54,836 nucleotides of DNA from Clostridia bacterium (GTDB lineage Bacteria; Bacillota; Clostridia; Christensenellales; UBA1242): contig CAWVLM010000038.1 in NCBI GenBank assembly GCA_963930145.1, positions 1 through 54,836 of the forward strand. The letters are read 5' to 3'. The notes beneath the pieces are model-generated. The model saw only the letters and a program-made list of their open reading frames with translations, was not told where the DNA came from and searched no databases. Shown here piece after piece: positions 7,099 to 54,051 of this stretch. The stretch's first letter is position 1, and each line of letters opens with the position of its first letter. The position numbers and the translations under genes were made by a program.

Positions 7099-9000
7099 TT
7101 GCAAAAAAAATTCACATTATTTTCATTAAAGAAAAGGATATTAGCAATTCTCTTGGTAATATCCTTTATTTTTTGTGCCTTAATCGTCAGATTATTCGTT
7201 ATACAGGTGATAAATGGCAAAGATTTACAGCTTAGAGCGACCGACCAGTGGACAAGAGACCTTTCTATAGTTGCGCCACGTGGCAGTATATACGATACCA
7301 CAGGTTCAACGCTTGCTGTCAGCTATACAACTTATAATGTCTATGTCAGAGCAAGGGAAGTCATGTCTATAAGCAAGGTCGCATCCGTTTTGTCGCAAGA
7401 ACTTGATTTAGATTTTTCTTCAGTTTATCAAAAAATTAGCAATAGAAATGTCAGCGAAGTGCTGGTAAAAATGCAGGTTGACGGCGAGATTGCAGAGGCT
7501 ATATACAACCATAAACTTGACGGCGTATACTTAGCGGAAAACAGCGATAGATACTATCCAAACGGCAACCTTTTAACGCAGGTGCTTGGCTTTATCAGTA
7601 TAGATAATGTCGGTCAAACGGGCGTTGAAGCATATTATAACGATGTTTTAAGCGGCACTGACGGCTATAGCTATGTCCAAAGTGACCTTCAAGGCAAGGA
7701 GATAGGAGGAAGTTTAAGATACTACTATCCAGCAACGGCGGGCAATAGCTTAACCTTGACGATAGATAGTAAGATGCAACTTATACTTGAACAGGTGCTT
7801 GAGCAAATTATGGAAGAGCAGCAGGCAAAGAACGTTTCAGGGCTTATCATGAATGCCAAGACAGGAGAAATTTTGTCTCTTTCAAGTAAGCCTAGCTTTG
7901 ACCTTAACGATGTGCCACGCGATGACCTTGAAACGCTCTTTGATCAAAGCCGAATAAAACTTGTAACCGATATATACGAGCCAGGGTCTACTTTTAAAAT
8001 ATTGACAGTTGCCGCCGCACTTGAAGCGGGTGTATGCAGTTTAGACGACACTTTCTATTGTCCAGGCTATAGAATTATAGACGGCGAAAAAATCAAATGT
8101 TGGAAAACAATAGGGCATGGAACGCAAACTCTTGCGGAAGCCTTTTCTAATTCATGTAACTGCTGCTTTATGGACCTTGCCCTTAGACTTGGCGTTGATA
8201 GATTCTATGAGTATATGGAAAAGTTCGGACTTGGTCAGCAGACCGGCATAGATATCTCAGGCGAAGGCAGCGGAATGCTTATGGCAAAATCTCAGGTCAG
8301 AACGGTGGACCTTGCTCGTATGGGCTTTGGTCACGCGGTTGCTCTCACCCCAATTCAGCTTTTGACTGCCGTTGCCTCTATCATAAATGGCGGCACTTAC
8401 AACGAGCCACATTTGTTATCTTCAATCACTGACACCACAAGCGGTGAAACACAAACAATAGAAAGCAGTGTCAGGGCAACGGGGGTTGTCAGCAGCGAGA
8501 CGTCTCAAACAGTCAACTACCTTCTAGAACTTGCAGAAAATAAGACGGGCAAATACACCTTTGTTGAAGGCTACAATGTTGGCGGCAAAACGGGAACAGC
8601 ACAGAAATATAGTGAAAGCGGCGGGATTGCTCAAGGTAAATATATTTCGAGCTTTATAGGAACCTATCCGGCGGATGACCCAGAATATATTGTATTTATC
8701 ATGGTTGACGAGCCAAGTGCTGGTGCCTATTATGGAAGCATCGTTGCCGCACCTTATGGCAAGATAGTTTTTAGCAATCTGTTTGACTATCTCAACGAGC
8801 CTAAACAGGATGAAAACGTGAAAGTTGAGTATGTAGAAATGCCCAATGTTGAAGGCTTAAGTCTAGCAGATGCCGCAGTTGCCTTAAAAAATCTAGGCTT
8901 ATACTATGAGCTTGACGGCGAAGGAGAGTATGTTACTAGGCAGCTTCCGCCTGCTGGCACAAGTATTCAAGTTGGCACAAGCGTTGTTTTGATAACCTAA
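7099..9000 (+). CDS. Class B penicillin-binding protein (PBP2B/FtsI type) with one C-terminal PASTA domain
   Basis: N-terminal TM. STFK, SNS and KTGT transpeptidase motifs. PASTA-like tail (VEMPNVEGLSLADAAVALKNLGL...). TTG start 6 nt after a GGAGG. Confidence 0.9.
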   Translation: MQKKFTLFSLKKRILAILLVISFIFCALIVRLFVIQVINGKDLQLRATDQWTRDLSIVAPRGSIYDTTGSTLAVSYTTYNVYVRAREVMSISKVASVLSQELDLDFSSVYQKISNRNVSEVLVKMQVDGEIAEAIYNHKLDGVYLAENSDRYYPNGNLLTQVLGFISIDNVGQTGVEAYYNDVLSGTDGYSYVQSDLQGKEIGGSLRYYYPATAGNSLTLTIDSKMQLILEQVLEQIMEEQQAKNVSGLIMNAKTGEILSLSSKPSFDLNDVPRDDLETLFDQSRIKLVTDIYEPGSTFKILTVAAALEAGVCSLDDTFYCPGYRIIDGEKIKCWKTIGHGTQTLAEAFSNSCNCCFMDLALRLGVDRFYEYMEKFGLGQQTGIDISGEGSGMLMAKSQVRTVDLARMGFGHAVALTPIQLLTAVASIINGGTYNEPHLLSSITDTTSGETQTIESSVRATGVVSSETSQTVNYLLELAENKTGKYTFVEGYNVGGKTGTAQKYSESGGIAQGKYISSFIGTYPADDPEYIVFIMVDEPSAGAYYGSIVAAPYGKIVFSNLFDYLNEPKQDENVKVEYVEMPNVEGLSLADAAVALKNLGLYYELDGEGEYVTRQLPPAGTSIQVGTSVVLIT

Positions 9001-17291: not shown

Positions 17292-20200
17292 ATGAAAAGA
17301 AGGTTAAAAGAGAAAAAAGCAAAGAAATCAAGCGGTAAAAAGTGGCCGTTGTGGCTGACTTTCATACTTGTCATTGCAGCGGTAGGTGCTATATCTGGCA
17401 TAACAGTGCTAGGCGTTTATCTTGCAGGTGGTTTTGAAGAGCGAATAATAAACCCAGAGGCAATAGCTTTTTCTTACGATGAAAGTCTATATAATGAAAG
17501 CACAGGGCAACTTGAGGTTACAGATGATTTTACTTTAACTATCACAACTCCAACAGACCCTGTCACAGAAACGGCAGTCACACTTTCTTTCACAAGTGGT
17601 CTTTTCCATAAATTTGATGGGGATGACGGCGTAACATACATAGATAATGAGATAATTCAAGTTCCAGAGGTGGTAACGCTTGGTCAGCCTTTTCAGGTCA
17701 AGCTTATACGCGACAACTATCTTGTAGACAGCGAAGGGAAGGAAATATTAGATGAATATAATCGGTCTATAGATTGGATTGTTGGCGGAATTTCGGTTTT
17801 GCAAGCAAGAAGTGAATATAACATGATAAGTGCAGTCACTTTGCAAATTGCAGTAGATGTTCCTGTATATATGACAGAGACAGTGGCAATCAACTCAACA
17901 ACAGAGACAACAAACCAAATAGTAACAGGCGAGGCGTTCCATCTTGACACAATATTCTACCCAGCAAAGAGTGAATACATATATAGTGATGATGCAAACA
18001 GTAATATTGACGAAGAGAATAAACGTGTAAAACATGCTTACTATCAAGCAATAAATGTGGATGCAAGCAGCCTTTCAACGCGATATGATGGAAGATATGA
18101 TGTAAGTTTTATTGCAGGCGATCAAGCGGTTGATAATATAACCATGATGGGTTATACATTTAGAGATGCTGCAACTCAAATAGCAACAGAAAACCTATAT
18201 ATAGATTCAACAGACGAGCTTTTCTATTCACAGGTTTTAGGATATCTTTTCTCTTCAACAAACGACGTTTCTTCTTCTTTAAATATAAGAATTGGTGCGG
18301 CTAGCGTATATAATTTCACTGTAAGCAAGGCAGGCTCAACAGTATCAATGAACGCAGACAGCACTATGAGAATATATTTAAACCAATATTTATATGACCA
18401 AAGTGCCGAGTTTTTAGGGGTTAATATCTATTCAACATCAGGCTCTATAATTGAAAATATGCTCCCAAACCTAGCACTTTCCTTTGAATACAACGGCTCA
18501 GACCCAACGCTTGATGAAAACGCCTTTTTAACAGTACGCGGCGGTGAAAGCGTTGTGGTAGACGGAGTTACATACTATAAGCCATATTCAAATGTTTCAA
18601 ATTATAACTATAGTTATTGGGATTTATTGTCTTCACAAAACGCAAATATAACAGTTAGCGTTGTGCTTTTAATTGAAAATGAAGATGGTTCTTATTCGCT
18701 TTTTGGAGAGCCTTCTCTTATTTACAATTTCACCTTGTCAGTTGAAAGACATGCCGAGTCTGCAATCTCTTGGGCTGATTCAAGCGATATCGATGTTATG
18801 CTTAACTATAACACCGATGGCAGCATCAATCCTTACACATTAAATTTGGACGGGCTTGTATCTATACCAACAGACAATATCTATCAAAGCTATGTTTTCT
18901 TTGCATACTTTGGTGAAGGAGAAAAGGATGCACTAGTTCCAACAGCAAACACAATCATTGGCTCAACAGGTTATAACTATGATTTAACAGGCTACTATTC
19001 AACAGATATAGATAACCTTATGCTCTTTGCAATAAATGGCAGCACAATCACTCTTCAAAACACAGGCACGTTTAGATTATATTATGCAACAATTATAACA
19101 GAAAATGGTGTTCCTGTATATGAAGAAGACCAAAGCGGAAATAGAACATATCAGATTGCCATGATGTGCAACGAATATATAACTGTAACGTGCGAAAAAT
19201 CTCTTTATCAAGATTCAATTCGTGCTGGCGAGATTGACGTCAGTGCTTTCCCAGAGGTGAATGGCGAAATTGCAATAAATCAAGGTGCAACTCAAACAAT
19301 CAGCGTAACATTTAGGGTGATGGCAGAATCTGTATCTGTATTCCAAGAAGAATACGACAATGGTTATATCAATCTATTTGTAAGAAGTTCGCAAGGTGCC
19401 GATGTAAGTTCATATTTCTCAATAGTAAGCAGAGAATTCTCTATTGATGGAACGTCAGGCGAAGGCGTGCTTAAATATCAAGTCAATGTGAATACTGGAA
19501 TAAGTATAGATATTTTAAATGGAATATATATCTCTCAATTTGTATTAAATTATAATGATAATGATGACACTAACATTGATTGGGTTATAGATGCTCCAGC
19601 CGAAACAAATATTTGTATCTACAGCCCAGTAGCTACCAATCTTGAAATAGCCCCAGAAGGAGCATATGATTACAATAGTTTTATAACAGGCGAGGAAACT
19701 ATCTATGTAAATCAATCTTTAAATGCTGGTGGCAATTTTTCAACAACTATCAGTCTTGGGAATGTTGAACTTAGTAGCGTAACAGAACTTTTGGCAAGAC
19801 TTTTAGGTGCTGACAATAGCTATGTCACAATAACAGACCAAAAAGATAGAATAGATACTCTTGCAGGGAATTGGAAATTTGTTGTTTCAAACGGCTCTGC
19901 TGATGCAGTCAATCTAAACGGACAAACCTTCACCTTCAGACAGGCTAGCGGTGCCGAGGTGACTCTTGCTCTTGCAAGCACTGACGGCAATGCAACGAGC
20001 TTGACAAATGGACAAAGCATAACTTTAAATATCTCATCTGTTGGTGTAACCTATGCCGATAGCACAGATTCACTTGACCCATTTACAAATGATGACTACA
20101 CGGAAGAGACTGATATATCAAACATCGCTGTAAGCAAATATGGTGCAAAGTCAAACAGTGCGACAGACACAATCAACCTAAGCACTCTTGTAAGATTTTA

Positions 20201-23200
20201 TATAGGCGAAGAAGCTGGCAGAACTCAGTATAACAACATACGTTTTCAGCTCAGCCAACAATATCTCAATGACAGCACGCTAACTGATGATATGATTGTT
20301 GACCTATTTGGACCTGACGGCATGCTTACATTATTTAATGAAACAGGCGTTATTTCAGGACTAGACGGCACTGCCGCGTCTATTAGGGCAGCACTAAGCG
20401 GACAGACAATCACAAAAGTTATGATAAATAAAGACTTTGCGGTAGACCATATTATAAGGTTCACCATTTCAGATACAGGAGAAAATGGTGCAATAAGTTC
20501 AACGTTAAGTTTAACGCTACTTTCAAATTTATCAATTTCATCTCAAAACTATCCAAATAATGGTGAAACTTTATATGCAAGTGCAGCTTTAGAACTAGAA
20601 AATACTGTTACGAATAATTATCTTAACTATAAGTCTGGGATTTACGATAATTCTTTTGCTTCACTCTATGATGACGGCGTGTCAATGTATTATATAGTAA
20701 GAAGTGGCAACAATTATATCTTGCAAGATACCATGCCTTCGTCTTATGTGGGAATATTCTATGCCCAAGAAACTAACGTAGGCGGAACATTCATTCCAGC
20801 AGGAACAATCATCTTCTCAGACTTTTGGAACGTTCCATCTCAGACATATTCAATAACATTTACACCAGATGGCGAGAATTACTTTACATTGAGCCGTACA
20901 TTAAGCTTTGTGGTAACTCGCGACCTTGCCATAACTGACCTTGAAAATGTTTACTATATAATGAACGATGGGGCAAACTATGGTATATCAAACTTTGTAA
21001 GTCTGCATAGAATGTCCACAGCAGGCAGCACAGCAGACACAGCCATAAACGGAATCGATGTGGAATATGTATTCTCTGATTATCTAGTTTATGAAAATAA
21101 CAATGTCACAAAGAGCGATGACGCATTCTTTGTATTTGATTATAACACAACTGAGCTTATCACAACCTTAACAATAAATTATCTAGTTCGTGGTGCAAAT
21201 GACATAATATTAAATAGAGTAGAGCTTGGCTCTGTTGAAATCAAAATAAAATTGTATTCTAATGGCGATGATTTTGACCTTTACGAGTATATTGCAAGCT
21301 TAATATCTTATGATTCAAACTACAGCATAAAGGCAGAAGTTCAAAATGTGGGTTCAACAGAATATATAATGCTTCAAGAAGGCACTTGGTTCTTAAATGA
21401 TGACTTTGCTATACTTGGAACAAACAGCTTCAACATCTATGGCAATTTAAGAACATATGCCACAGACGGCAACTCACAATCAACATCTAACTACTTAGGT
21501 GTAACTTATGATTCAACAGGGCACACTGTTATAGATGAAGAAGGCTTGGAAATAACACTAACAGGCACAAGACTTACAACAAGAAATTCAAGTGGCAGAC
21601 TGCTTCAAGGCCTTGATAGTGAAAAACTCTTCCTTGTTGTATACTTTGGTTCTGCAAATGAAAATTATGGCGAGAAGCCAGAATTTCCAGGTTCTATTGC
21701 GGTAATGTACGTGCCAATAGTAATATCATCAATTGGCTATGATTATGTAAATTATGAAAGCGAGCTTGAGGCTAGCAGCAATCTCGCAACCGCCATGACC
21801 GACCCTAATACTCTTATTGAAAATGGTATTTATGATATAGTAACAGCAGGGCAGGTAACACAAATTTTAAGCGAATATACATTCGGTGAAACTGTTGCAA
21901 ATGGCTTATATATGATTACAAATTCAAGTTTATCAGTAAATATCGAATATTATCCTATTGATACAACAGGTTCAGTTCAAACTAATTCTGAAATAGTCAA
22001 ACTTATTTCTATAGAGTCGCAGCAAGTTGGAAGCGGCGAATATGAAAGAGTGGGCAATCTATATCTTAACCACCTTACAAATTCAATTGATGATTTCTAC
22101 CTGGCATTAAGATACACAATTTCAAACTCGAGTGACAGCCGTGAATTTTTCTACGTGCTTAAAGTTATTCCAGATGTCATTGTAGAAGAATCTGTATATG
22201 GCTATAATGGCAATTCAGAATTCTTAGAAAGCGAAGTGAACAGCGAAAATATGGTTGAGCTTGACCATATATTTGGTGCAACCACGCTTAACGAAAATCA
22301 AAAAAGATTCAACATCACAAAAGTTCTTCCACTAGTTGAAGGGTATGCGATAGAAGAAGCTTATAAATATTTAACTATCACAAATGATTCTGAGCAAGTT
22401 ATATCCACTTTAGACGCAATTATACAGCGAGACATGACGATTTCAGTATCTCGCGTGGATGAAAACGATGATGTAACAGGCGACTTGCAGCTTATCACAA
22501 TCACAACACTAGAGCAAATAGTCGACCTAGCAGATTATTTTGAAGATATTGCAAGTGGCGATAGATTTGTAATTGAAATTATTGCAGGTGAAGGTGATTT
22601 ATTCTATAACGGGCAACAGATACAGGTTTCACACGACACCATCACAGACTTGCAAGTCGAGGTCACAGAAGAGATGCAAGTATGGTTTACATTATATAAT
22701 AGTGATAATCAACTTAAGGCAGATTCTCAATTTGTGACTATCACAAAAGATGAACAAACCATTGACCTAATAGAAGTTTTTGCTGAAGCCTTTGATGCAA
22801 TTGAAGATTTTGAAATTGCAACAGGAGACATTCTCACAATCAAGATAATTTCGGGTGAAGGCGATATAATATACAATGGCACAGAAATATTCTCAGATTT
22901 AAAAGAAGAGAACGCTGTTGAAAGTGTTATGGCTGGCGAAGACCTTTATTACACAGAAGAGACATGGTCAGATTATGTAAGAATTTATTTCTCTGAAGAC
23001 TACTCAAAAATGTACTACACGCCATACACAAGCGAGCAGCTTACAATAAACATCAGGCACAGTTATAAGGGTGGGGCACAAGATGATGAGCTAGCCGTTA
23101 TAGGTGGCGAGCAGTACTACACATTCATTCTCAACACAACCACGTATAACTATTCAGTAAGGTTTGCAGAAGATGGCAAATCTCCAGTGATAACAGATGA

Positions 23201-26200
23201 AAACAGCACAACCTACACATGGGAGGTCTCTAGAGAAGATATTTCAGACGCAAGAACGCTTTCTATGGATATAAGATTGCTAGAAGGCTATATTGCAGGT
23301 TCAGCACAGAGCTACACAGAGGTTTGGAATATTCTTGAGATATCTATGACGGGTGAACGAGCAGCAAATCAAGAGATAGGTATGGGCACAGAATCTGCCG
23401 TTGTATCTTTTGATTATGATAATTCTCAAGCAAATCAAGGTCAATTTAATATCACTTTTGCAGATTATATTTCAAGTGATAGACAAATAGAATTCACGCT
23501 CTATACAGAGCAGGGCTATCTTGCAACACTTATAATAAACATATCAGCAACTGCAAGTTATGAGATTATTGCAGGAAACAGCACTTTGCTTGGCGGAAAC
23601 TCATACCAATTTAATAATGTGTTTGCTATCAGTCTAAACGGCTCAGAAACACCACTTTCTGGCAGTGACTATATAGTCACCTTAGATTCAATCACAAGTT
23701 CGTCTAAGGATATAAATGGCTTTGATGGCACAGACTTTATCATATTTGATGAAAATGCAACATTTATAGTTGCAGACCTTATCAGAGACTATAATGTAAC
23801 GCTCAGCTTTATAGTTACATTTGCAGAAAGTGCAGGCTCAAGTTATGTCAACCAAGTATTCACATTCACAGCAACGTTAACTCTTGGTCGAAATGTTACC
23901 TATAAAACAAGTGCAAACGGCGGAGCTGTTCTTGCAGGCGAAGATTTAGAAATATACGAGAGCGGCATATTTAACACAAACCATAGTTATGAAAATACAG
24001 AAATCGTATATAATGGTTCATCTTCAAGTCCAGCCTTTGCGTCAATAGAAGGAACAACAATTCATACAAACTATATTGCAAGCGACACAAATGTTGATGT
24101 AAACATGATTGTCACATTATATTTTAATTATTCAAACGCTCACACTCTAACAAATGTGGCATACCAAACCTTTACAATAACCTATTCGTTCAACGCATAT
24201 AAGAGCGTAACGCTTGACGCTAAGTATCCTTCTCCTAATGGCGAAGCTCTCACAAGAGAATATCTAGATGATGGCACATCATTTACAAATATTCTAACAG
24301 GTTTCATTTTGCATAAGCCAGCCTTCAATCAAACCGAAGGTGGAGAGCCATTAAACAGAATTACAATCAAAAAAGGCAATAGAAAGGGCACGCAACTTGA
24401 ATACGAAGATATAATATCAAGTATAACAGACACAAACAACCTTTCAATTTCAATTATTGCCATGTCAAACGCAAGTGTCTATACCGATACTGTTAAAGTG
24501 AATGACGGTGCTGATGAAAATGATACAAACTATGTGGTAAGCAGCGAAATTGAATATAACAAAAACATCACCTTTAAACGTGGCACTTGGACATCCACAA
24601 AGACCGAAAATGGCACAAAAATATCTTTCAACGATAACGGGAATGACTCCTATGTAACATTTAGAATAACCTATCAAGAAGTGTCTTGTGACTATACAGT
24701 CTATATTCTTGCAAACTCTATAATTGCTCAAATAAACTATACAAGTGCAAACGTTGCAAGTGGCAATTATTCAGATGGCGATAGCTCAATACTAGTATCC
24801 TATGAAACTCTATATGTCGACAAAACTTCAACGACCGCTTTGTTCGGGCAAAACAGAATGGCAAGCGTTGTGTTTAGCAATGACCTTGCAGTCACAGGCT
24901 CATACTATATTGTATTTGCAGCTGAAAGCAACTATAGCACTGATAGCAGCACAAATTTCTATGCATCATATCCACAATATATAAGCTCAAGTAATGCAGG
25001 GCAGATAGCAAATATAGACCTTGGTTACAGCATGGCAAAGGACGGGAACGACTTTGTATATGTTGGCACCTATGAAGTTGCAGCTTTTGAGAGCAATATG
25101 CTTACAGTTGCCGAAAATGGTTTGATTGCGAAAGCAGGCTCAACACAAAACAATGCGGCAACGTGGGCAGATATCAATAAACTCACGAATAGTGATGCAA
25201 ATCAAAGAATATTCACAAGTTTAACTCTCACTCATAGAATAGAACTTGTCTATGGCGGCTCAAATGGCGTGCCTATTGCATATAGTTATTATGGCAATAT
25301 GCTTGCTAACTTTGAGTTTATCAAAGGCTCAACTATAAATTATAAACTTGACACAATAAACGGAATATCAGTATTCGGCTCGTCGTCTCTTAATAAAGAA
25401 GATGGCAGCACAAAAGCCGAAGTTATATTCTCCTTAAATTACTACTTTAAGCCAAGTATAGATATTGACGTAGATGAAAAGATATCAAGCCAGAATAACT
25501 ATATTGAACTTGAGGTAAACTATGAAATTCCAAGTATGGTAGAGCTCTTTGGCGTTCGTCACCCAACAACAGGAGAATATATCAATGAAGCCGATTTCGG
25601 AGCTGGTAAGGCTAATTTAAGTTTTGAAAGTGTAAATTATCAAGTAAATAATAAATTAAATACTGTTGATGAATCTTATCAAGATATCCTTGACGGGTAT
25701 ATCTCAACCTATAATTTTGCAGACGAAGGCTTTAGGATTCAAGCACAAGACGATGGTACAAATAAATATGTATATCTATTCTCATCAGCCATCCTAAACG
25801 CAGGGCAATATGCCTATGACTATATGCTGCTGCCACTTGGTGCAGATAATCAAGGTGACTTTGTTCTCACAAGACTTGCTTATACCGTTCCATTAGATGG
25901 GACAACACTGTCCTATGAAAAGGAATTTTATATCGTAGTTAAAGTCGTTCCAGATTATCAAATAACCTATGGTGGAAATGTTGTAGAAAATGACTTAAAT
26001 AGTGACGCAGTCACAAATCAAGGCAATCCATACAATATTGTAAGCCTTACAACAGATTCAAATACAAATATAACTCATTATAGTGAATTTACTTTAACAA
26101 GCTCCAGCACCGTAACAGATGGACATGTTTCTGTAAGACATACCAATGGTGATAACACCTCGGTAGAACTTGCAACTTCCAACTTCACGATAACAATGGC

Positions 26201-28226
26201 TGTTCCAGGCACAACAATAGAAGGTATTGAATATAATAATGCAACAAATATAAATCAAAAATTGCAGGCTGATTTAAATAGGGCTTGGGGAAAAAGTAAT
26301 AACACATACACATTGAAGGAGGGATTTAACACGACCTTCACATCAGCAAAAGAAGTAATTTTTGGGACTCAATATTACTACATTCAAGCGGTAGACCCAT
26401 ATGGTTTCACATATATTCTATATTTCAGCTTACAATCATCTTATTCAGAACCTGACATAAAAGCTGATACTATTTCGCTTACCGAACTTGGCTATATTGA
26501 CTTTGGTGCTCAATATGAGCTTATCAGTGTTCAAGAAGTGGTAAAAGATGATGAAACAGAATTCTATATCAATTCACAAACCTATCCACCTGAAACCACA
26601 GACGCATCAGTTCAACTTGTTGAAATCACAGGCATTGAGGCCTATCTGTTCAGTGCCGATCCAACAGGTATAGGCGGAATATCCCAAAAAGAGAAGGGTG
26701 GTGGTTATGAAATAACAAACACTGAAGATCAAAACAAATGGCCAAACTATAACGAAGACATCTCTTATTTTGAAGTTCCGATGCTAAACTATGTAACAGT
26801 TGACTCAATTATGTTCTATGATATGGACGATAATGCAATTATAAAAAATGCTATAGAGCCAACAAAAATAGGAACGGAAAGCGGCTATACTCTTGCTACA
26901 ACCACAAGTTCATCAGGCGAAGAAAGTGGCATGGCAATCTATAACGGTCTTGGCACAAATAACACAGGTCGTCTTCCTTATGAAAACCCAGGGGAAGATA
27001 AGAATAACCTAGTTGATGGGCAACAATATTTGCCATTCCAAGTTCCGCGTATCACAGATACAAGTTTATTTGAAGATAGCAACACCGCCCAAGCACAAAT
27101 GGTTGTTAGACTTAAATATAAAAAAGACACAACAATAGAATATTATGACTTAAAGGTTAATGTAACTATCACAAGAGAAGTCACGATCATGTCAAATGAA
27201 GGTGCTTCACCTGTCAGAGATGGTGTAGGCTTTAATTTGAGTGGCGAATTTGAAGTAACAAGCGGTGGGGACAAATTGGATAGTAAGAAAGTTACATACC
27301 TAAATGATACACTTGAAGTTCTTGTCAATGGCGGGCAATCAACATCGTTTGAGATGTATCTATATAGAGACGACAGTCTATATAATAATACTCCGGCAAT
27401 TGTTGATATATCTAACACAGGCAATAGTTGGGCGAGAACAGAGTATATTTCAATATCACAGTATTTAAGAACCAATGTACAACTTGGTGATGAAATACAA
27501 ATTGTTCCACGCGATCAAAATGCAACATTCTATTATGTATATAATAATGGTGCAAGTGCAACATACTATCAATATCAAGTATTTGCTAAAGCGGATGGTT
27601 CTCTTGCAATTAAACAGGCGGGCAGGCCAAATATAGAATGTAACATTCTAATAAGGGAAATAGCTCAAGATGTTATCTATGTTGAAAACGCATCACTACT
27701 TGAGGCTAGAAATTATTATAACGTAAGAAAATACTATATTGTCAGCGTAAACTTTGGCGGAAGCGGCAGTGCAACTCCATTTAACTATAGAGTTTCTAAA
27801 AATTATTATGTAACTGGAAGATATTTCATGCTGCAACGCAATTATACAGCCCAAGATATCATACCATCTATCAATTGCACAGAATATCAAGGTCAGCGTA
27901 TATCGCTTCTTGCCCAATGGTCAGGCACAGCTTATTTCAGTCTCCACTATGCTACTAGTGAGCTTCAGCCAGATACTACTAACACTATAGGGCTATCTTC
28001 AGCAGCTTCAGTATTAACCTTTACTCTTGATGCAACAGATGGTGCGTCTGGTAATGCTGAGGTTAGTGATAATGGAACGATTACATTCTATAATTCATTT
28101 ACTTATGATCAATATGTAAAGATTATCATTAGAATGAAAGTTTCGGGAGCTGATAGAGAAATCAGTGATGATGGCGGACTTGTCACGCTTGGCACGTTAA
28201 AACTTCGCTGGAAAGAAAAATTTTAA
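17292..28226 (+). CDS. Giant (3644 aa) N-terminally membrane-anchored surface protein, no recognisable domain
   Basis: Uninterrupted 10.9-kb ORF. K-rich cytoplasmic head (MKRRLKEKKAKKSSGKK) followed by one TM (WPLWLTFILVIAAVGAISGITVLGVYLAGG). The rest is T/S/N/Y/I/V/G-rich. No LPXTG-like C-terminus. Confidence 0.85.
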   Translation: MKRRLKEKKAKKSSGKKWPLWLTFILVIAAVGAISGITVLGVYLAGGFEERIINPEAIAFSYDESLYNESTGQLEVTDDFTLTITTPTDPVTETAVTLSFTSGLFHKFDGDDGVTYIDNEIIQVPEVVTLGQPFQVKLIRDNYLVDSEGKEILDEYNRSIDWIVGGISVLQARSEYNMISAVTLQIAVDVPVYMTETVAINSTTETTNQIVTGEAFHLDTIFYPAKSEYIYSDDANSNIDEENKRVKHAYYQAINVDASSLSTRYDGRYDVSFIAGDQAVDNITMMGYTFRDAATQIATENLYIDSTDELFYSQVLGYLFSSTNDVSSSLNIRIGAASVYNFTVSKAGSTVSMNADSTMRIYLNQYLYDQSAEFLGVNIYSTSGSIIENMLPNLALSFEYNGSDPTLDENAFLTVRGGESVVVDGVTYYKPYSNVSNYNYSYWDLLSSQNANITVSVVLLIENEDGSYSLFGEPSLIYNFTLSVERHAESAISWADSSDIDVMLNYNTDGSINPYTLNLDGLVSIPTDNIYQSYVFFAYFGEGEKDALVPTANTIIGSTGYNYDLTGYYSTDIDNLMLFAINGSTITLQNTGTFRLYYATIITENGVPVYEEDQSGNRTYQIAMMCNEYITVTCEKSLYQDSIRAGEIDVSAFPEVNGEIAINQGATQTISVTFRVMAESVSVFQEEYDNGYINLFVRSSQGADVSSYFSIVSREFSIDGTSGEGVLKYQVNVNTGISIDILNGIYISQFVLNYNDNDDTNIDWVIDAPAETNICIYSPVATNLEIAPEGAYDYNSFITGEETIYVNQSLNAGGNFSTTISLGNVELSSVTELLARLLGADNSYVTITDQKDRIDTLAGNWKFVVSNGSADAVNLNGQTFTFRQASGAEVTLALASTDGNATSLTNGQSITLNISSVGVTYADSTDSLDPFTNDDYTEETDISNIAVSKYGAKSNSATDTINLSTLVRFYIGEEAGRTQYNNIRFQLSQQYLNDSTLTDDMIVDLFGPDGMLTLFNETGVISGLDGTAASIRAALSGQTITKVMINKDFAVDHIIRFTISDTGENGAISSTLSLTLLSNLSISSQNYPNNGETLYASAALELENTVTNNYLNYKSGIYDNSFASLYDDGVSMYYIVRSGNNYILQDTMPSSYVGIFYAQETNVGGTFIPAGTIIFSDFWNVPSQTYSITFTPDGENYFTLSRTLSFVVTRDLAITDLENVYYIMNDGANYGISNFVSLHRMSTAGSTADTAINGIDVEYVFSDYLVYENNNVTKSDDAFFVFDYNTTELITTLTINYLVRGANDIILNRVELGSVEIKIKLYSNGDDFDLYEYIASLISYDSNYSIKAEVQNVGSTEYIMLQEGTWFLNDDFAILGTNSFNIYGNLRTYATDGNSQSTSNYLGVTYDSTGHTVIDEEGLEITLTGTRLTTRNSSGRLLQGLDSEKLFLVVYFGSANENYGEKPEFPGSIAVMYVPIVISSIGYDYVNYESELEASSNLATAMTDPNTLIENGIYDIVTAGQVTQILSEYTFGETVANGLYMITNSSLSVNIEYYPIDTTGSVQTNSEIVKLISIESQQVGSGEYERVGNLYLNHLTNSIDDFYLALRYTISNSSDSREFFYVLKVIPDVIVEESVYGYNGNSEFLESEVNSENMVELDHIFGATTLNENQKRFNITKVLPLVEGYAIEEAYKYLTITNDSEQVISTLDAIIQRDMTISVSRVDENDDVTGDLQLITITTLEQIVDLADYFEDIASGDRFVIEIIAGEGDLFYNGQQIQVSHDTITDLQVEVTEEMQVWFTLYNSDNQLKADSQFVTITKDEQTIDLIEVFAEAFDAIEDFEIATGDILTIKIISGEGDIIYNGTEIFSDLKEENAVESVMAGEDLYYTEETWSDYVRIYFSEDYSKMYYTPYTSEQLTINIRHSYKGGAQDDELAVIGGEQYYTFILNTTTYNYSVRFAEDGKSPVITDENSTTYTWEVSREDISDARTLSMDIRLLEGYIAGSAQSYTEVWNILEISMTGERAANQEIGMGTESAVVSFDYDNSQANQGQFNITFADYISSDRQIEFTLYTEQGYLATLIINISATASYEIIAGNSTLLGGNSYQFNNVFAISLNGSETPLSGSDYIVTLDSITSSSKDINGFDGTDFIIFDENATFIVADLIRDYNVTLSFIVTFAESAGSSYVNQVFTFTATLTLGRNVTYKTSANGGAVLAGEDLEIYESGIFNTNHSYENTEIVYNGSSSSPAFASIEGTTIHTNYIASDTNVDVNMIVTLYFNYSNAHTLTNVAYQTFTITYSFNAYKSVTLDAKYPSPNGEALTREYLDDGTSFTNILTGFILHKPAFNQTEGGEPLNRITIKKGNRKGTQLEYEDIISSITDTNNLSISIIAMSNASVYTDTVKVNDGADENDTNYVVSSEIEYNKNITFKRGTWTSTKTENGTKISFNDNGNDSYVTFRITYQEVSCDYTVYILANSIIAQINYTSANVASGNYSDGDSSILVSYETLYVDKTSTTALFGQNRMASVVFSNDLAVTGSYYIVFAAESNYSTDSSTNFYASYPQYISSSNAGQIANIDLGYSMAKDGNDFVYVGTYEVAAFESNMLTVAENGLIAKAGSTQNNAATWADINKLTNSDANQRIFTSLTLTHRIELVYGGSNGVPIAYSYYGNMLANFEFIKGSTINYKLDTINGISVFGSSSLNKEDGSTKAEVIFSLNYYFKPSIDIDVDEKISSQNNYIELEVNYEIPSMVELFGVRHPTTGEYINEADFGAGKANLSFESVNYQVNNKLNTVDESYQDILDGYISTYNFADEGFRIQAQDDGTNKYVYLFSSAILNAGQYAYDYMLLPLGADNQGDFVLTRLAYTVPLDGTTLSYEKEFYIVVKVVPDYQITYGGNVVENDLNSDAVTNQGNPYNIVSLTTDSNTNITHYSEFTLTSSSTVTDGHVSVRHTNGDNTSVELATSNFTITMAVPGTTIEGIEYNNATNINQKLQADLNRAWGKSNNTYTLKEGFNTTFTSAKEVIFGTQYYYIQAVDPYGFTYILYFSLQSSYSEPDIKADTISLTELGYIDFGAQYELISVQEVVKDDETEFYINSQTYPPETTDASVQLVEITGIEAYLFSADPTGIGGISQKEKGGGYEITNTEDQNKWPNYNEDISYFEVPMLNYVTVDSIMFYDMDDNAIIKNAIEPTKIGTESGYTLATTTSSSGEESGMAIYNGLGTNNTGRLPYENPGEDKNNLVDGQQYLPFQVPRITDTSLFEDSNTAQAQMVVRLKYKKDTTIEYYDLKVNVTITREVTIMSNEGASPVRDGVGFNLSGEFEVTSGGDKLDSKKVTYLNDTLEVLVNGGQSTSFEMYLYRDDSLYNNTPAIVDISNTGNSWARTEYISISQYLRTNVQLGDEIQIVPRDQNATFYYVYNNGASATYYQYQVFAKADGSLAIKQAGRPNIECNILIREIAQDVIYVENASLLEARNYYNVRKYYIVSVNFGGSGSATPFNYRVSKNYYVTGRYFMLQRNYTAQDIIPSINCTEYQGQRISLLAQWSGTAYFSLHYATSELQPDTTNTIGLSSAASVLTFTLDATDGASGNAEVSDNGTITFYNSFTYDQYVKIIIRMKVSGADREISDDGGLVTLGTLKLRWKEKF

Positions 28227-36015: not shown

Positions 36016-37132
36016 GTGGCTTGGCGGGTTTTTTCTTGCCTTAATAATTCTTGCAATAGGGTTTGCAGCTGGCTTTGCGATTGATATTTTTATTATTGAC
36101 AAACCGAAAACAGAAACCTTTATAAGCGGTGATTTATCAATACACTTTTTGCAACTTGGAAATAAATACACAGGCGACAGCGTTTATATTAAGTGTGGCG
36201 AAAATGACATATTGATAGATGCAGGCTCTCGCAATGACTCTTCATCCACAATTATAGACTATGTTGACGAGTATGTCACCGATAACACTCTTGAATATGT
36301 GATTGCAACGCATGGGCATGAAGACCATATTGCGGCATTCTATAGCGAGGCAGACAGAACAGGAATATTTGACTACTATCAAGTTGAAAATATAATTGAT
36401 TTTCCACTTACAAACAGCAGTGCAACATCAAGAACTGTTGTAGGTAAATACTATGCTGCTCGTGACAAAGAAATCGCGGAAGGAGCAAATCACTGGACTG
36501 CACTTGAGTGCTATAACAACGAAAATGGTGCAAGCAGGGTGATACAGCTTTCTAGTGATGTCGAACTTGAGATTTTATATAATTATTATTATGACCACAC
36601 TCAATCATCAGGCGAAAATGACTATTCAGTGTGTGTTATGATAAATCAAGGCGACAACCATTATCTTTTCACTGGCGACCTTGAAAAGCGGGGAGAAGAA
36701 AGGCTTGTTGAATATTATGCAGAAAACCACGGCGGACTTCCACATTGCGTATTGTATAAAGCAGGGCATCACGGCTCAAAAACTTCAAGTTGCCCTTTAC
36801 TTATGGAGACAATCACGCCTGAATATGTTTGCGTATGCTGCTGTGCGGGAACAAGCGAATATACCGACAATCCAGAAAATCAATTTCCAACGCAGGAGTT
36901 TATCGATAATGTTGCTCCATACACAGACAACGTCTACGTCACATCAATGGTAGATAATTATGTCGATAAAGCTGATTTTTCAGCACTTGGCACGGTAAAA
37001 CCCATGAATGGCAATATAGTTTTCACCGTTTCAGGCAATACCATAACAATAGAATTTAGCGATAGCGACCTAAAACTGAAAGATAGCGATTGGTTTAAAA
37101 ATAACCGAACTTGTCCATCAACTTGGCAATAA
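36002..37132 (+). CDS. Membrane-anchored MBL-fold hydrolase (ComEC C-terminal-domain-like)
   Basis: HGHEDH metal motif, downstream GHHGS, N-terminal TM. Overlaps the previous gene by 14 nt. Confidence 0.75.
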   Translation: MKVFKWLGGFFLALIILAIGFAAGFAIDIFIIDKPKTETFISGDLSIHFLQLGNKYTGDSVYIKCGENDILIDAGSRNDSSSTIIDYVDEYVTDNTLEYVIATHGHEDHIAAFYSEADRTGIFDYYQVENIIDFPLTNSSATSRTVVGKYYAARDKEIAEGANHWTALECYNNENGASRVIQLSSDVELEILYNYYYDHTQSSGENDYSVCVMINQGDNHYLFTGDLEKRGEERLVEYYAENHGGLPHCVLYKAGHHGSKTSSCPLLMETITPEYVCVCCCAGTSEYTDNPENQFPTQEFIDNVAPYTDNVYVTSMVDNYVDKADFSALGTVKPMNGNIVFTVSGNTITIEFSDSDLKLKDSDWFKNNRTCPSTWQ

Positions 37133-37173
37133 AATTTTAATACAATTTCTCCAAACTTTAATTGTTTTTAAAG

Positions 37174-37210
37174 ATTGTTAATTAAAAATTCATTAACAAT
37201 TTTTTTTTTA
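37174..37210 (+). terminator. Intrinsic terminator of the MBL hydrolase operon
   Basis: ATTGTTAAT-TAAAAATTC-ATTAACAAT, a 9-bp stem followed by T9. Confidence 0.75.
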
Positions 37211-37318
37211 TATTTCAATGTGTTTAGCGTTGTTCTTTTAAGTTAATTTAGAATTTGTAAGGTTTATATGAAATATTTGCAAGTGAATCACAATGGCTAA
37301 ATTTGTATGCATACTATA

Positions 37319-37414
37319 CACGCGAATGGGAGAGCTTTTTGTAAACCAAAAAGCTCTCCAAAAGGCACAAAAGTGCCTTTTACAAACTCTCGCGAGAGTT
37401 TGTTCATTCGCGTG
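37319..37414. other. Four-way-junction 'cloverleaf' module A (96 nt)
   Basis: A 10-bp outer stem encloses three contiguous hairpins of 12, 9 and 11 bp. Pairings were verified base by base (see findings). Confidence 0.7.
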
Positions 37415-37490
37415 CAAATTTTTATAAATAACTACTATATAATATTCATTAAAAAAATTTAAAAATTTTTAAAAAAATTGTTAAATTTGC

Positions 37491-37518
37491 TTGACACGCG
37501 TTGCGGGGGGGGTAAACT
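37491..37518 (+). promoter_or_regulatory. Promoter with a G8 tract in the spacer
   Basis: TTGACA (37491-37496), 16-nt spacer CGCGTTGCGGGGGGGG, TAAACT (37513-37518). Confidence 0.5.
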
Positions 37519-37524
37519 AATAGC

Positions 37525-38035
37525 ATAAAGATAGTCGCCGTATGGCGACTATCGCGAGCGGCGAGCCAAATGCTCGGCGGCCGATAGGTTGAGTTAGAAA
37601 AATAAAACCTTTTCCGCTCTTTTGAAACAGACAAAATTAGATGTTATGTATGTACTATACGATAGAAAGTGGCTAAGCCACCAAACATCTAGTTTTCCGC
37701 GAGTGTGAGAAGGCACGTGTTGTTTTGCATTTTGCAGAACAACACAGAAGGCAAAAACTTTTGCCTTTAAAAAACATATAGTTTTTTGTGCCTTCTCATG
37801 CTTGAAGCTCGCTCGAAAATGTTGGCTACCTAGTTGTTAAGCACTTAAAAAGTGTGACATTTGTCACAGTTGAAAATTTTTTTAAAAATCTTTAATTTTG
37901 TGACGTCATCGTGCCGTCACCCTTGAGACAAAGGGGTTACGAAAGTGCTAGAATATGACTAAGATATGCAAAAAAGGTCGAATTTTGCATAAAACTATAG
38001 CGTTTAAACAAAATAAAGAAAAATCTAAAATTTAA
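37525..38035 (+). ncRNA. Candidate large structured RNA or highly structured 5' leader of the DUF6273-like gene
   Basis: About 510 nt with no credible ORF, packed with perfect hairpins and multi-branch junctions, and richer in GC than other intergenic DNA here. Strand is inferred from the promoter only. Confidence 0.4.
37706..37798. other. Four-way-junction 'cloverleaf' module B (93 nt)
   Basis: 11-bp outer stem TGAGAAGGCAC/GTGCCTTCTCA enclosing hairpins of 12, 8-9 and 7 bp. Confidence 0.7.
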
Positions 38036-38049
38036 AAGGAAGGTAAAAA

Positions 38050-39408
38050 ATGAGTCTTAAAATCAAACTTATGTCAGCAATTTCAGCATTTATCTTAGTG
38101 CTAAGCATGCTGCTCGTTGGAGTTTTGGCAGCAACGCAAACGATTAACCTTAAAGGAACAGTAAACTTTAATGTTTCAGATTCAACGTTATATCTAAAAG
38201 ATATGCGTATTCAAACTGAGAGTACAGGGCAAGATAGCACAGCTGATAATTTTATGCCAGGCTTTATTAGTGGAGAAATAGATATAAATTTAGGCACAAT
38301 TTCTTCATCAAGTGGCTCAGTCAATATATACTTTGACTTTGTAAATACCACTTCAACAATGTATCAAGCTTCGCCAACAGGCGGCAGCGGAGTAACCTTA
38401 TCAACAAGTGGAATGATAGCGGGCTCTCAAGTTGCAATTGGAGACGTTACAACAGCAGATATCTCAGGCACAATAATTTTAACAATACAATTCACTGGCT
38501 CAAGCAGCGTTGATTTAGATGGAATATCAATCTCGTTTAATGAATATTCGCCATACGAGAGAGTAGATGCAGATGACAATCCAGATCCAAATGGAGATTA
38601 TCTATACTTTGGATATTACCCGCAAACAATAAAGACAGCAGATGTTACAGTTGGCTCAGCTCCAGAATCAAATGGCTATTATTTAGGTAGTGACGGAGAA
38701 TATTATGCAAAAGTCTCAGCAAACCCTTTTGACAGTAATTATACCTTTTCAGATGGCACTACAATAGTTTCAGGCACAGAATATTATTTTAAAGTTGAAC
38801 CTTTAAGATGGCGTATTTTAGATGATGCCTATGGTGATGGAACAGCACTTATTGTATGTGATTCAATAATAAATGCAATGTCATTCCAATCACAAGTTAA
38901 GAATAATGAAGATGATGGATATAACTACGTCATAGATGATTCAGGTGAATATATATTAGATAAAGATGGAAATAAAGTTTACGCAAATAACTATGAGTAT
39001 AGCGAAATTAGAGCGTATTTAAACAATGATTTCTATAACAGTGCGTTTAGTAATGGAGAACAAACAATCATTGTTACAACCGAAGTTGATAATAGTTTAG
39101 AATCAGCTGGCGTTATGAGTGATCAAAAATACATTTGCAATAACACTTATGATAAAGCATTTTTATTGAGCTATGCAGACATTGAAAATTATGGGTTGCA
39201 TCCCCAACTCTCAGGAACATTTGATTTTATAACAAGTGATTATAGTCGTGCTTCAGGCATAATTATGGAAGTGAGATACCAACCATTAGGCGTAGGGCGT
39301 TCATACACACGTTCACCTTTTGGTTATGAATACGGAGGAAATTATGGATTAGATGTGATTTCCGTATCAGGGGGGCTACTGGGAATTCTTCAGCAAATTC
39401 CAACTTAA
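38050..39408 (+). CDS. Secreted DUF6273-like protein (W-L-R-S-P type module), C-terminus probably frameshifted at a G6 tract
   Basis: AAGGAAGG RBS. Signal peptide MSLKIKLMSAISAFILVLSMLLVGVLAA. LRWRILD ... YTRSP module. The expected family tail is in the adjacent frame (see finding). Confidence 0.8.
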   Translation: MSLKIKLMSAISAFILVLSMLLVGVLAATQTINLKGTVNFNVSDSTLYLKDMRIQTESTGQDSTADNFMPGFISGEIDINLGTISSSSGSVNIYFDFVNTTSTMYQASPTGGSGVTLSTSGMIAGSQVAIGDVTTADISGTIILTIQFTGSSSVDLDGISISFNEYSPYERVDADDNPDPNGDYLYFGYYPQTIKTADVTVGSAPESNGYYLGSDGEYYAKVSANPFDSNYTFSDGTTIVSGTEYYFKVEPLRWRILDDAYGDGTALIVCDSIINAMSFQSQVKNNEDDGYNYVIDDSGEYILDKDGNKVYANNYEYSEIRAYLNNDFYNSAFSNGEQTIIVTTEVDNSLESAGVMSDQKYICNNTYDKAFLLSYADIENYGLHPQLSGTFDFITSDYSRASGIIMEVRYQPLGVGRSYTRSPFGYEYGGNYGLDVISVSGGLLGILQQIPT

Positions 39409-42920: not shown

Positions 42921-42997
42921 TGGTGCGTCGCAAGGGATTCGAACCCCTGACCTTTCGTTCCGTAGACGAACGCTCTATCCAGCTGAGCTAGCGACGC
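42921..42997 (-). tRNA. tRNA-Arg (anticodon ACG), CCA encoded
   Basis: Reverse complement GCGTCGC-TA-GCTC-AGCTGGATA-GAGC-G-TTCGT-CTACGGA-ACGAA-AGGTC-AGGGG-TTCGAAT-CCCTT-GCGACGC-A-CCA folds as a canonical cloverleaf. Confidence 0.95.
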
Positions 42998-52873: not shown

Positions 52874-52974
52874 ATGTCTAGCAGCGTACGTCTTTTGCAA
52901 TGCAAAAGCCGTCAAAACGCTTTTCAAGCGTTTTTGCAAGCATAGCCATGCTTGCCGCTGCTAGACATTTTTTA
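52874..52974. other. Four-way-junction 'cloverleaf' module C (95 nt) plus a T run; may also serve as the terminator after the LtaS-family gene
   Basis: 13-bp outer stem ATGTCTAGCAGCG/CGCTGCTAGACAT enclosing three hairpins of 7-11, 9 and 8 bp, followed by TTTTT. Confidence 0.7.
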
Positions 52975-53019
52975 TAAGCCAATTTTAACACAATATAGCT
53001 TTTAAGAATATAAAATGTT

Positions 53020-54051
53020 ATGTTCTCAAAAATATATATAAACAGCACAAATTTAATTCACAATGTTGAAAAACTTGAAGAAATTGCTGCACACAAGATA
53101 TGCGTGATGATAAAGGCAAATGCCTATGGGCATGGCATGAAAGAAATTCTCTCTATTTTAAATGATAAGGTTGACTATTTTGGCGTGTCAAACCAAAGTG
53201 AAGGCCTGCTTGCGAAGAGATATACAAAGAAGGATGTAATAGTGTTCGGTGCCTGCGAAGATTATCGGGTTTGCATGCAAAATGATGTTTCTTTTGCACT
53301 TTTTTCATATTTAGACGCAAAAAAGATAGCAAAAACAGCAAAAAAATACAACTTAACACCCAAAATGCATCTTTGTTTAAACACTGGCATGAATAGGTAT
53401 GGTGTTAAAACCGAGAAAGAGCTTCAAAAGATAATCACTTTTTTAAAAAAGCAGGGCTTGTCTCTTGCAGGAATCTATACTCATTTCTCTTCACTAACAA
53501 CTGATAGAGACTATACTGAAAAACAAAAAGAAAAGTTTTTTAGATTTATAAAACATATTCCTAAGGAGTGGCAAACGATAAAGCATGTTGGCGGCGGGCG
53601 AAGCATCTTTGAAAAACTTGATGTTGATATGTTTAGAGTAGGGCTTGAAGTGTATGGCTATGGCAACGAGTTTGTCAAGCCTGTCCTTTCAGTTGAAAGC
53701 ACGATAGTTGATATTCAGCAGGTAGATAAAGGCGAACATGTCGGCTATCTCTGTGGTTATACCGCAGAAAAAGATATCACCGTTGCAGCCATTCCGCTAG
53801 GCTATGGTGATGGGCTGCCACGGAAACTTTCAAATAAGCTAATAGTATCAATAAGGGGAAAAGAAGCAAAGGTAACAGGCAATATCTGCATGGACGCCTT
53901 TATGGTAGATGTCTCTGATAATAATTGCAAGATAGGCGATAGCGTTATGATAATGAATAATGCGTCCGCTCTTGCTCCGCTTATTGAAAGCACAGAATAC
54001 GAGGTTCTCACAAATCTAGCTAAGTTTAGGGGAGAGCGAGTTATAGTTTAA
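53020..54051 (+). CDS. alr: Alanine racemase
   Basis: VMIKANAYGHG (PLP lysine), IPLGYGDG, and NICMD near the C-terminus. Confidence 0.9.
   Translation: MFSKIYINSTNLIHNVEKLEEIAAHKICVMIKANAYGHGMKEILSILNDKVDYFGVSNQSEGLLAKRYTKKDVIVFGACEDYRVCMQNDVSFALFSYLDAKKIAKTAKKYNLTPKMHLCLNTGMNRYGVKTEKELQKIITFLKKQGLSLAGIYTHFSSLTTDRDYTEKQKEKFFRFIKHIPKEWQTIKHVGGGRSIFEKLDVDMFRVGLEVYGYGNEFVKPVLSVESTIVDIQQVDKGEHVGYLCGYTAEKDITVAAIPLGYGDGLPRKLSNKLIVSIRGKEAKVTGNICMDAFMVDVSDNNCKIGDSVMIMNNASALAPLIESTEYEVLTNLAKFRGERVIV

Follow-up and report, generated by a model that had tools for sequence, protein, structure and literature searches.

The plus strand of positions 37700-37804 folds into a near-perfect four-way junction with linkers of 0-1 nt, here denoted cloverleaf B. 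The window, meaning the whole stretch of DNA analysed, is a contig of 54,836 nt from a gut Clostridia genome. The fold of B is real and highly non-random, and the molecule that adopts it is most likely RNA. We put at about 0.5 the probability that B is a hyperstable module, defined by its shape only, that would serve RNA stability or insulation within a leader or a small RNA. The evidence for the fold, its strand and its surroundings is presented below, followed by a comparison with similar elements in related genomes.

Structure of cloverleaf B

The cloverleaf is both the minimum free energy (MFE) and the centroid structure of the segment 37695-37810 (plus strand, RNAfold), with an energy of -59.3 kcal/mol. 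The corresponding value for 200 dinucleotide shuffles is -24.8 +/- 3.3 kcal/mol (z -10.6), and none of the 200 is as good. The outer stem and the three hairpins of the original prediction are all present, both by a check of the sequence and in the RNAfold structure. The suggestion that the outer stem could be extended by about six pairs also holds: the 11-bp core (37706-37716 / 37788-37798) continues for another 6 pairs, of which three are G·U, and the resulting 17-bp stem is found in the MFE and the centroid alike. The structural elements, all on the plus strand, are as follows.

37700-37716, plus strand: 5' arm of the closing stem, 17 bp with 37788-37804, in MFE and centroid
37701·37803, 37704·37800 and 37705·37799, plus strand: G·U pairs of the closing stem
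37717-37729 / 37733-37745, plus strand: hairpin H1, 13 bp, loop of 3 nt, one U·G at 37725·37737
A37746, plus strand: single linker base
37747-37755 / 37760-37768, plus strand: hairpin H2, 9 bp, loop of 4 nt, terminal G·U 37747·37768
37769-37775 / 37781-37787, plus strand: hairpin H3, 7 bp, loop ATATA
37788-37804, plus strand: 3' arm of the closing stem, followed by AAGCTCGCTCGA, with no T-run

A shape scan was defined as three gap-free hairpins and a closing stem, with stems of at least 7 pairs, an outer stem of at least 8 pairs and G·U pairs allowed. At strict settings the window yields three matches, whereas its full sequence, dinucleotide-shuffled 30 times, yields none; at looser settings, 197 of 200 shuffles of the intergenic region of B are without any match. 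B had been described as embedded in a large structured region, and the fold of 37133-38052 agrees with this (z -16.5 on the plus strand, -13.4 on the minus strand). The description of B as a copy is correct in one respect only. It has the same architecture as the two other cloverleafs of the window, A (37317-37416) and C (52874-52968), but no BLAST similarity to them; A and B are not paralogous repeats, as BLAST finds no similarity between them past a shared 14-nt motif.

Strand and nature of the molecule

All five G·U pairs of B are on the plus strand, with none on the minus strand. As RNA, the plus strand is more stable by 13 kcal/mol (-59.3 vs -46.3 kcal/mol), so that the wobble asymmetry proposed as a means of assigning the strand is indeed seen. 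Under DNA parameters, the strands hardly differ (-35.7 for plus, -33.6 for minus); consequently, the strand inference is valid only if the molecule is RNA. The earlier preference for a plus-strand RNA over a DNA structure is thus borne out by the G·U polarity and the RNA energies, but not by the DNA parameters.

The module is also carried by a sister species (L111 and L112) with three differences, two in stems and one in a loop. The G to A change at 37737 turns the U·G pair of H1 (37725·37737) into U-A, and the T to C change at 37799 turns a closing-stem G·U (37705·37799) into G-C, while the loop change, A37776 to T, adds an eighth pair to H3. The two stem substitutions are the only ones, and both are interconversions of G·U and Watson-Crick pairs on the plus strand, as predicted for a plus-strand RNA, in two events only. 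Since these homologues lie in a recombination block that is 98-99% identical, just two substitutions are informative. As far as sequence comparison goes, these observations support B being an RNA of the plus strand, and the single-stranded-DNA reading of B is weakened.

Genomic context

The window is ordinary chromosome of a gut Clostridia MAG, with genes such as metG, PBP, proS-like, peptidase U32, desulfoferrodoxin, rubrerythrin, RNase HII and alr; genes for a transposase, a recombinase or a reverse transcriptase are absent from the 55-kb window. B lies downstream of a gene for a ComEC-like MBL-fold protein, which stops at 37132 and is followed by a hairpin terminator of its own at ~37170-37210. 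From 5' to 3', this terminator is followed by cloverleaf A, an A/T-rich block, a promoter-like site, a 10-bp hairpin, the domain containing B and a DUF6273 gene. The main features are the following.

37317-37416, no strand assigned: cloverleaf A, closing stem of 10-12 bp and hairpins of 13, 9 and 9 bp, all Watson-Crick
37491-37518, plus strand: promoter-like site, sigma-70-type TTGACA-N16-TAAACT, the best match in the region (10/12)
37530-37553, plus strand: perfect 10-bp hairpin, ~5 nt downstream of the predicted transcript start
37554-37812, plus strand: multi-branched domain closed by GCGAGC (37554-37559) and GCTCGC (37807-37812)
37925-37954: second candidate promoter, TG-extended TAGAAT, which could drive the DUF6273 gene without B
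38050-39408, plus strand: DUF6273 gene with a hydrophobic N-terminus (Pfam PF19789, E 2e-13)

We infer the transcription of B from the consensus promoter match. The spacer of this promoter-like site contains a tract of eight G (37505-37512), and the A/T-rich block lies upstream. Both hexamers are kept in L111-L113 (in L111 the site is at 8062-8097), with a spacer of 16 nt in the window, 18 nt in L111, 18 nt in L112 and 17 nt in L113, the difference being due to the G tract. Phase variation through homopolymer tracts is known for surface-protein promoters in other bacteria. The poly-G spacer here looks like that of a slipped-strand phase-variable promoter placed before the DUF6273 gene, with homopolymer sequencing or assembly error as another possible origin of the length differences. 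The DUF6273 gene is likely to be the cargo of this promoter and leader.

Judged by its position relative to the promoter-like site, the hairpin at 37530-37553 is a possible protective hairpin of the 5' end. The domain that follows (37554-37812) holds a small hairpin, a Y-shaped module and cloverleaf B. The segment 37524-37886 folds with -136.9 kcal/mol (z -9.7), and the domain appears in both its MFE and its centroid, with the same pairing in the fold of the whole intergenic region. The Y-shaped module (37633-37696) is directly 5' of B and consists of a 13-bp closing stem with one mismatch and two 5-bp hairpins inside; its motif TGTATG(T/C)A(T)CTATAC is found again a little 5' of cloverleaf A (~37306-37321).

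The leader and the DUF6273 gene (~37466-39400) are 98-99% identical to L111 8041-10000, and likewise to L112, as compared with only 85% for the MBL gene. This indicates, on sequence grounds, that the surface-protein module has probably been recombined or transferred recently between species. The mosaic breakpoint between the window and L111 falls in the A/T-rich block, at ~37440-37480. The leader is not more conserved than the coding sequence; both are 98-99% identical to L111, and for one recombination tract such identity says nothing of selection on the leader. Two contigs of the same species (L114 and L115, 98.6% identical) are without a 73-nt segment upstream of A (window 37225-37297), and both stop inside the A/T-rich block before the promoter-like site, at the equivalent of window 37481. 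The gap and the contig ends could reflect heterogeneity of the population, or an assembly that broke off at structured or low-complexity sequence.

Elsewhere in the window, a second, weak DUF6273-like ORF is found at its start (80-868), and a 3644-aa ORF occupies 17292-28226, with no Pfam record for its L101 orthologue. At the position syntenic to tRNA-Arg(ACG) (42921-42997, minus strand), relatives have a gene for a rolling-circle Rep (REP_ORF2-G2P) or for a phage integrase (L103/L104 15117-16043; L118 1-733), and we regard this tRNA-adjacent site as a putative integration hotspot.

Comparison with known RNA classes

No Rfam family matches the intergenic region of B at the gathering thresholds, including OLE, ROOL, GOLLD, T-box and riboswitches, and a search with permissive E-values gives only sub-threshold chance matches there, the best with 22 bits against a cut-off of 80. 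Neither conserved unpaired nucleotides nor a wide distribution is found for the structured region. Outside the L111-L113 block and the same-species contigs L114/L115, BLAST finds no homologue of the intergenic region in 80 related genome loci, in phages or in plasmids.

The resemblance of B to tRNA, which has arms of 7/4/5/5 bp and conserved D and T loops, is in outline only, the stems of B being two to three times as long. ARAGORN and the Rfam tRNA model (RF00005) call nothing at 37700-37804; the sole RNA gene called in the window by these two methods is the tRNA-Arg at 42921-42997.

B was also rejected as an intrinsic terminator, defined as a stable stem with a U-rich tract within 0-2 nt of its 3' arm. 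Its closing stem is followed by AAGCTCGCTCGA, and the terminator scan is silent on the plus strand at this point. The position of B does not suit a terminator either: it is 570 nt past the stop codon of the MBL gene, beyond that gene's own terminator and downstream of the promoter-like site.

Cloverleafs in related genomes

To place the three cloverleafs of the window among their relatives, loci of related genomes were fetched via the flanking MBL-fold gene, and cloverleafs were found by parsing of Lfold output. Cloverleaf A is ~110 nt past the simple terminator of the MBL gene, with a TTTTT on the plus strand that begins 4 nt past the stem, and is present in the same-species contigs L114/L115. 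In L002 and L003, whose MBL proteins are 93% and 89% identical, the corresponding intergenic region also has a cloverleaf, built alike but unrelated in sequence. There are two cloverleafs in L005 and one in L022; L016, L020, L087 and L029 have one between an upstream Ig-like gene and the MBL gene. The architecture therefore recurs without sequence similarity by BLAST in A, B, C, L002/L082, L003 with L101-110, L005 (two), L016/L020/L087, L029 and L022. Searched by BLAST against the window and all loci, each cloverleaf matches only itself and same-species orthologues, with no copies of the REP/BIME or MITE type.

Across the set as a whole, the design is three hairpins and a closing stem, with 40-45 bp in total and -50 to -60 kcal/mol. 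When high-quality matches are counted by hairpin number, three hairpins give 24 strand-hits, two give 15, mostly weak, and four give 1. Many intermediate relatives are without a cloverleaf at the MBL site. Loci from more distant Clostridia, ~0.5 Mb in all, contain no comparable cloverleaf; three candidates with three branches passed the filter there, which are much less regular and lie outside matching intergenic regions. A specific link to the MBL gene was considered and rejected: most cloverleafs of the relatives adjoin this gene, yet C is elsewhere and many relatives have none there. As the loci were sampled around the MBL gene, an association between the two is not established.

In eight of ten elements, every G·U pair is on the same strand. 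The plus/minus counts in this comparison are 7/0 in B, 5/0 in L003, 3/0 and 2/0 in the C orthologues of L118 and L117, 2/0 in L020, and 0/2 and 0/3 in the two elements of L005 (L005a and L005b), which favour the strand antisense to both flanking genes, a point against the RNA reading. A T-run is present on the strand favoured by G·U in C, L117, L118, L003, L022 and L005a. L082 differs from L002 by one C to T change that gives a G·U on the plus strand, and L020 differs from L029 by three compensatory changes (identified by eye, from two distinct sequences). Within the species of L003, the cloverleaf sequences of 10 contigs are identical, with no variation seen.

The 5' arm of the closing stem of L005b (GAGGCTTGCAGAAGA) is repeated 50 nt upstream, the two occurrences being at L005 7348-7362 and 7398-7412. 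The duplicated arm adjoins an apparent C-terminal fragment of a gene for a leucine-rich-repeat surface protein. The duplication may be a trace of how cloverleaf modules arise.

Cloverleaf C

Cloverleaf C lies 60 nt past the stop codon of a sulfatase-family gene, upstream of alr.

52874-52974, plus strand: cloverleaf C with T-run, a 13-bp closing stem and three hairpins, then TTTTTT directly

Orthologues of C were fetched via alr, which is 99% identical in L116, 87% in L117 and 82% in L118. All three keep the cloverleaf (L117 1966-2060; L118 9834-9935) and a T-run right after the closing stem (TTTTTTAT, ATTTTTTAT and TTTTTTGTG). The plus strand of the C orthologues is favoured by 7-8 kcal/mol, with the same direction in folds of the whole spacer. 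The cloverleaf is also the RNAalifold consensus of only three distinct sequences, in which 8 pairs differ at both positions and another 5 have become G·U through a change at one. The fold is thereby kept in three species, two of them other than that of the window. In L120-L122 (alr 74-77% identical), the spacer between the sulfatase gene and alr is 35-92 nt long and contains no cloverleaf, as compared with 205-239 nt where the cloverleaf is present.

Since the fold is kept through compensatory pairs and a T-run is directly 3' of it, C looks like a branched intrinsic terminator. By sequence, C and the elements of L003 and L022 have what defines an intrinsic terminator, except that a four-way junction stands where the loop would be. 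In the literature on cloverleaf or branched terminators, no description of such elements was found. B has no U-tract, and the terminator role proposed for C is thus not transferable to it. A TATAAT is situated only ~4 nt upstream of the alr ATG and is kept in the window (53000-53022), L117, L118 and L120, which suggests that the alr mRNA may be leaderless.

Proposed role of cloverleaf B

We propose that a plus-strand transcript would start from the promoter-like site at 37491-37518 and run toward the gene of the DUF6273 secreted protein, with B as one branch of its multi-branched domain. This transcript would be either a leader of ~525 nt or a separate RNA of ~350 nt. B is without sequence-specific features and would belong to a lineage-specific set of modules defined by shape only. 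The mechanism could be purely thermodynamic: a large pairing energy is packed into helices that are each shorter than two turns, and the compact block would be hard to open for exonucleases and for the transcribing or translating machinery. Such a block may define and protect RNA ends and insulate adjacent units. With a U-tract behind its closing stem, as in C and its orthologues, L003 and L022, the module would be a Rho-independent terminator of branched form. In a leader, the case of B, and between the cistrons of L016/L020/L029, it would be a stabiliser or a processing boundary. A stabilising or insulating function of B is accordingly put forward as what the structure may do, and the constant count of exactly three hairpins is left unaccounted for by the thermodynamic reading.

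Precedents exist for parts of this scheme. Processed transcripts of Clostridium cellulolyticum differ in stability according to the free energy of their intergenic stem-loops (PMC4423207), and gut metagenomes contain many 'palindromic' candidate RNAs of 80-130 nt, mostly terminator-like (PMC8040213). A wider proposal, which we regard as tentative and rather doubtful, is that one gut Clostridia lineage evolved RNA four-way-junction modules defined by shape and free of sequence. These would arise de novo at unrelated intergenic sites, owe their continued perfection to selection or to template-switch correction, and find repeated use as leader elements, as stabilisers between cistrons and as terminators of branched form.

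Alternative explanations

The main alternative to an RNA module is a cluster of palindromes acting at the level of DNA, which we consider unlikely. Nested palindromes would form a four-way junction in single-stranded DNA or cruciforms, for example on the lagging-strand template, and would act in replication or recombination, or would be functionless by-products of template switching ('quasipalindrome correction'). Template-switch correction keeps arms perfectly complementary. This reading accommodates stems that are nearly all Watson-Crick, the equal folding of A, C and L002 on both strands, the DNA-parameter energies of B (-35.7 and -33.6), the patchy presence among relatives, and the fast turnover of sequence with arms that are still perfect; the arm GAGGCTTGCAGAAGA duplicated 50 nt upstream in L005 hints at local duplication or inversion. 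It is at odds with the G·U pairs, which are polarised to one strand per element, the strand with the T-run, and with one-sided substitutions that keep G·U and not A·C. Furthermore, the closing-stem arms are 70-80 nt apart, which does not permit extrusion from duplex DNA, the elements are exactly at gene ends or between cistrons, and no genes of single-stranded-DNA mobile elements are nearby. It is also rather improbable that B is a domain of one specific new 'ornate' non-coding RNA of ~300-350 nt (37525 to ~37885) with a phase-variable promoter and a trans-acting or protein-binding role. The promoter-like site is strong, the nested multi-branch domain has a z of -9.7, no ORF exceeds 61 aa or has coding signals, and a weak hairpin with seven T is found at 37853-37883; this putative terminator is poor, however, with a 6-bp stem and a T-run 9 nt away. 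Rfam gives no match, homologues are confined to the 98-99% identical block of L111-L113, with none in phages or plasmids, and there are no conserved unpaired nucleotides, which are the usual mark of ligand- or protein-binding RNAs.

The remaining explanations invoke known kinds of genetic element. Cloverleafs inserted by a lineage-specific enzyme that recognises shape would be non-autonomous mobile or REP-like elements. BLAST finds no sequence families within or between genomes, terminal repeats and target-site duplications are not recognisable, no transposase or RAYT-like (IS200/IS605-type) gene is present in the 55-kb window, and orthologous copies diverge in step with their flanks. We hold this explanation to be very unlikely, even though the presence of cloverleafs is patchy and lineage-restricted, several unrelated ones occur at the same MBL locus, and intergenic regions are 120-150 nt longer with a cloverleaf (205-239 vs 35-92 nt for sulfatase-alr). 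The leader switch of C. difficile cwpV is an inverton, an invertible switch for phase variation, and the structured segment could be one if the 35-nt inverted repeat 37455-37489 / 37865-37899 bounded it. In favour are the 83% complementarity of the arms, which flank both the promoter-like site and the structured domain, a downstream gene whose product is of a secreted or surface type, and the same-species contigs L114 and L115, which end inside the left arm. The arms, though, are low-complexity A/T and equally good as direct repeats, only one orientation occurs among the four independent contigs spanning the left arm, and the window has no recombinase gene, which together leave an inverton highly improbable. 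Finally, the cloverleaf outline suggests a tRNA-derived or tRNA-like element, and DUF6273 is a C-type-lectin-like domain known as a DGR target in phages (PMC10743442), so that an accessory RNA of a DGR targeting the DUF6273 gene could be imagined. Both ideas are already largely refuted: ARAGORN and the Rfam tRNA model call only the tRNA-Arg at 42921-42997, stems are 7-17 bp long with no D-, T- or anticodon-loop signatures, the window contains neither a reverse transcriptase gene nor a template-repeat copy of the DUF6273 gene, and the structure is 5' of the gene and not 3' of a variable repeat.

Relation to known systems and implications

If the RNA stability or insulation module is the correct reading, its closest relatives are intrinsic terminators and REP-like elements. 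C and its orthologues, L003 and L022 resemble intrinsic terminators in their conservation of structure only, their compensatory evolution, a G+C-containing stem that abuts a U-tract and a location at gene 3' ends. A canonical terminator, in contrast, is a single hairpin of 5-15 bp, whereas the loop of the cloverleaf is replaced by three hairpins, the free energy is 3-5 times the usual one, and B has no U-tract. REP/BIME elements and the C. cellulolyticum stem-loops (PMC4423207) are palindromic, intergenic or intercistronic, and transcribed, and guard upstream RNA from 3' exonucleases by stability and not by sequence; the cloverleafs are likened to them on the assumption of a similar stabilising effect. 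The cloverleafs of L016/L020/L029 have the REP-like trait of lying between two cistrons of one operon. REPs are, however, multi-copy sequence families with a cognate RAYT transposase, while the cloverleafs are branched and unique in sequence. The perfect four-way-junction design and the purely structural conservation are what is unusual in comparison with both groups.

More remote likenesses concern the fold. Like tRNA, the cloverleafs have four helices at one junction with an 'acceptor-like' closing stem, but they have no conserved loops and no motifs of a variable loop or of D/T-loop interaction, and their stems reach 7-17 bp. OLE, ROOL, GOLLD and raiA share with the B region an elaborate multi-branched fold in an intergenic region of Firmicutes; unlike it, they have conserved sequence cores and Rfam models, none of which matches here. 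The T-shaped inverted terminal repeat hairpins of parvoviruses and cruciform palindromes also nest small palindromes in a larger inverted repeat. They belong to linear or single-stranded-DNA replicons, unlike B, which is in a housekeeping region in mid-chromosome and whose G·U polarity points to RNA.

The implications depend on which reading is correct. If they are only DNA palindromes, the cloverleafs are a curiosity of mutation bias. If they are functional RNA modules, bacteria can use perfect four-way junctions, and not single hairpins, as the basis of terminators and RNA-stability elements, and such elements can be conserved by shape alone, with full turnover of sequence between species whose flanking proteins are ~90% identical. 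Such a class is missed entirely by terminator predictors and by homology-based searches for non-coding RNA, and would offer natural, compact and very stable parts for synthetic biology. Should the lineage-wide proposal be true, the lineage would have to possess either a factor of its own for recognising the four-way-junction shape or a mechanism dedicated to making such modules, and B would be a module of a phase-variable, ornate leader or small RNA controlling a lectin-like surface protein. Functional cloverleafs would also account for the long, 'empty' structured intergenic regions in the genomes of uncultured gut Clostridia.
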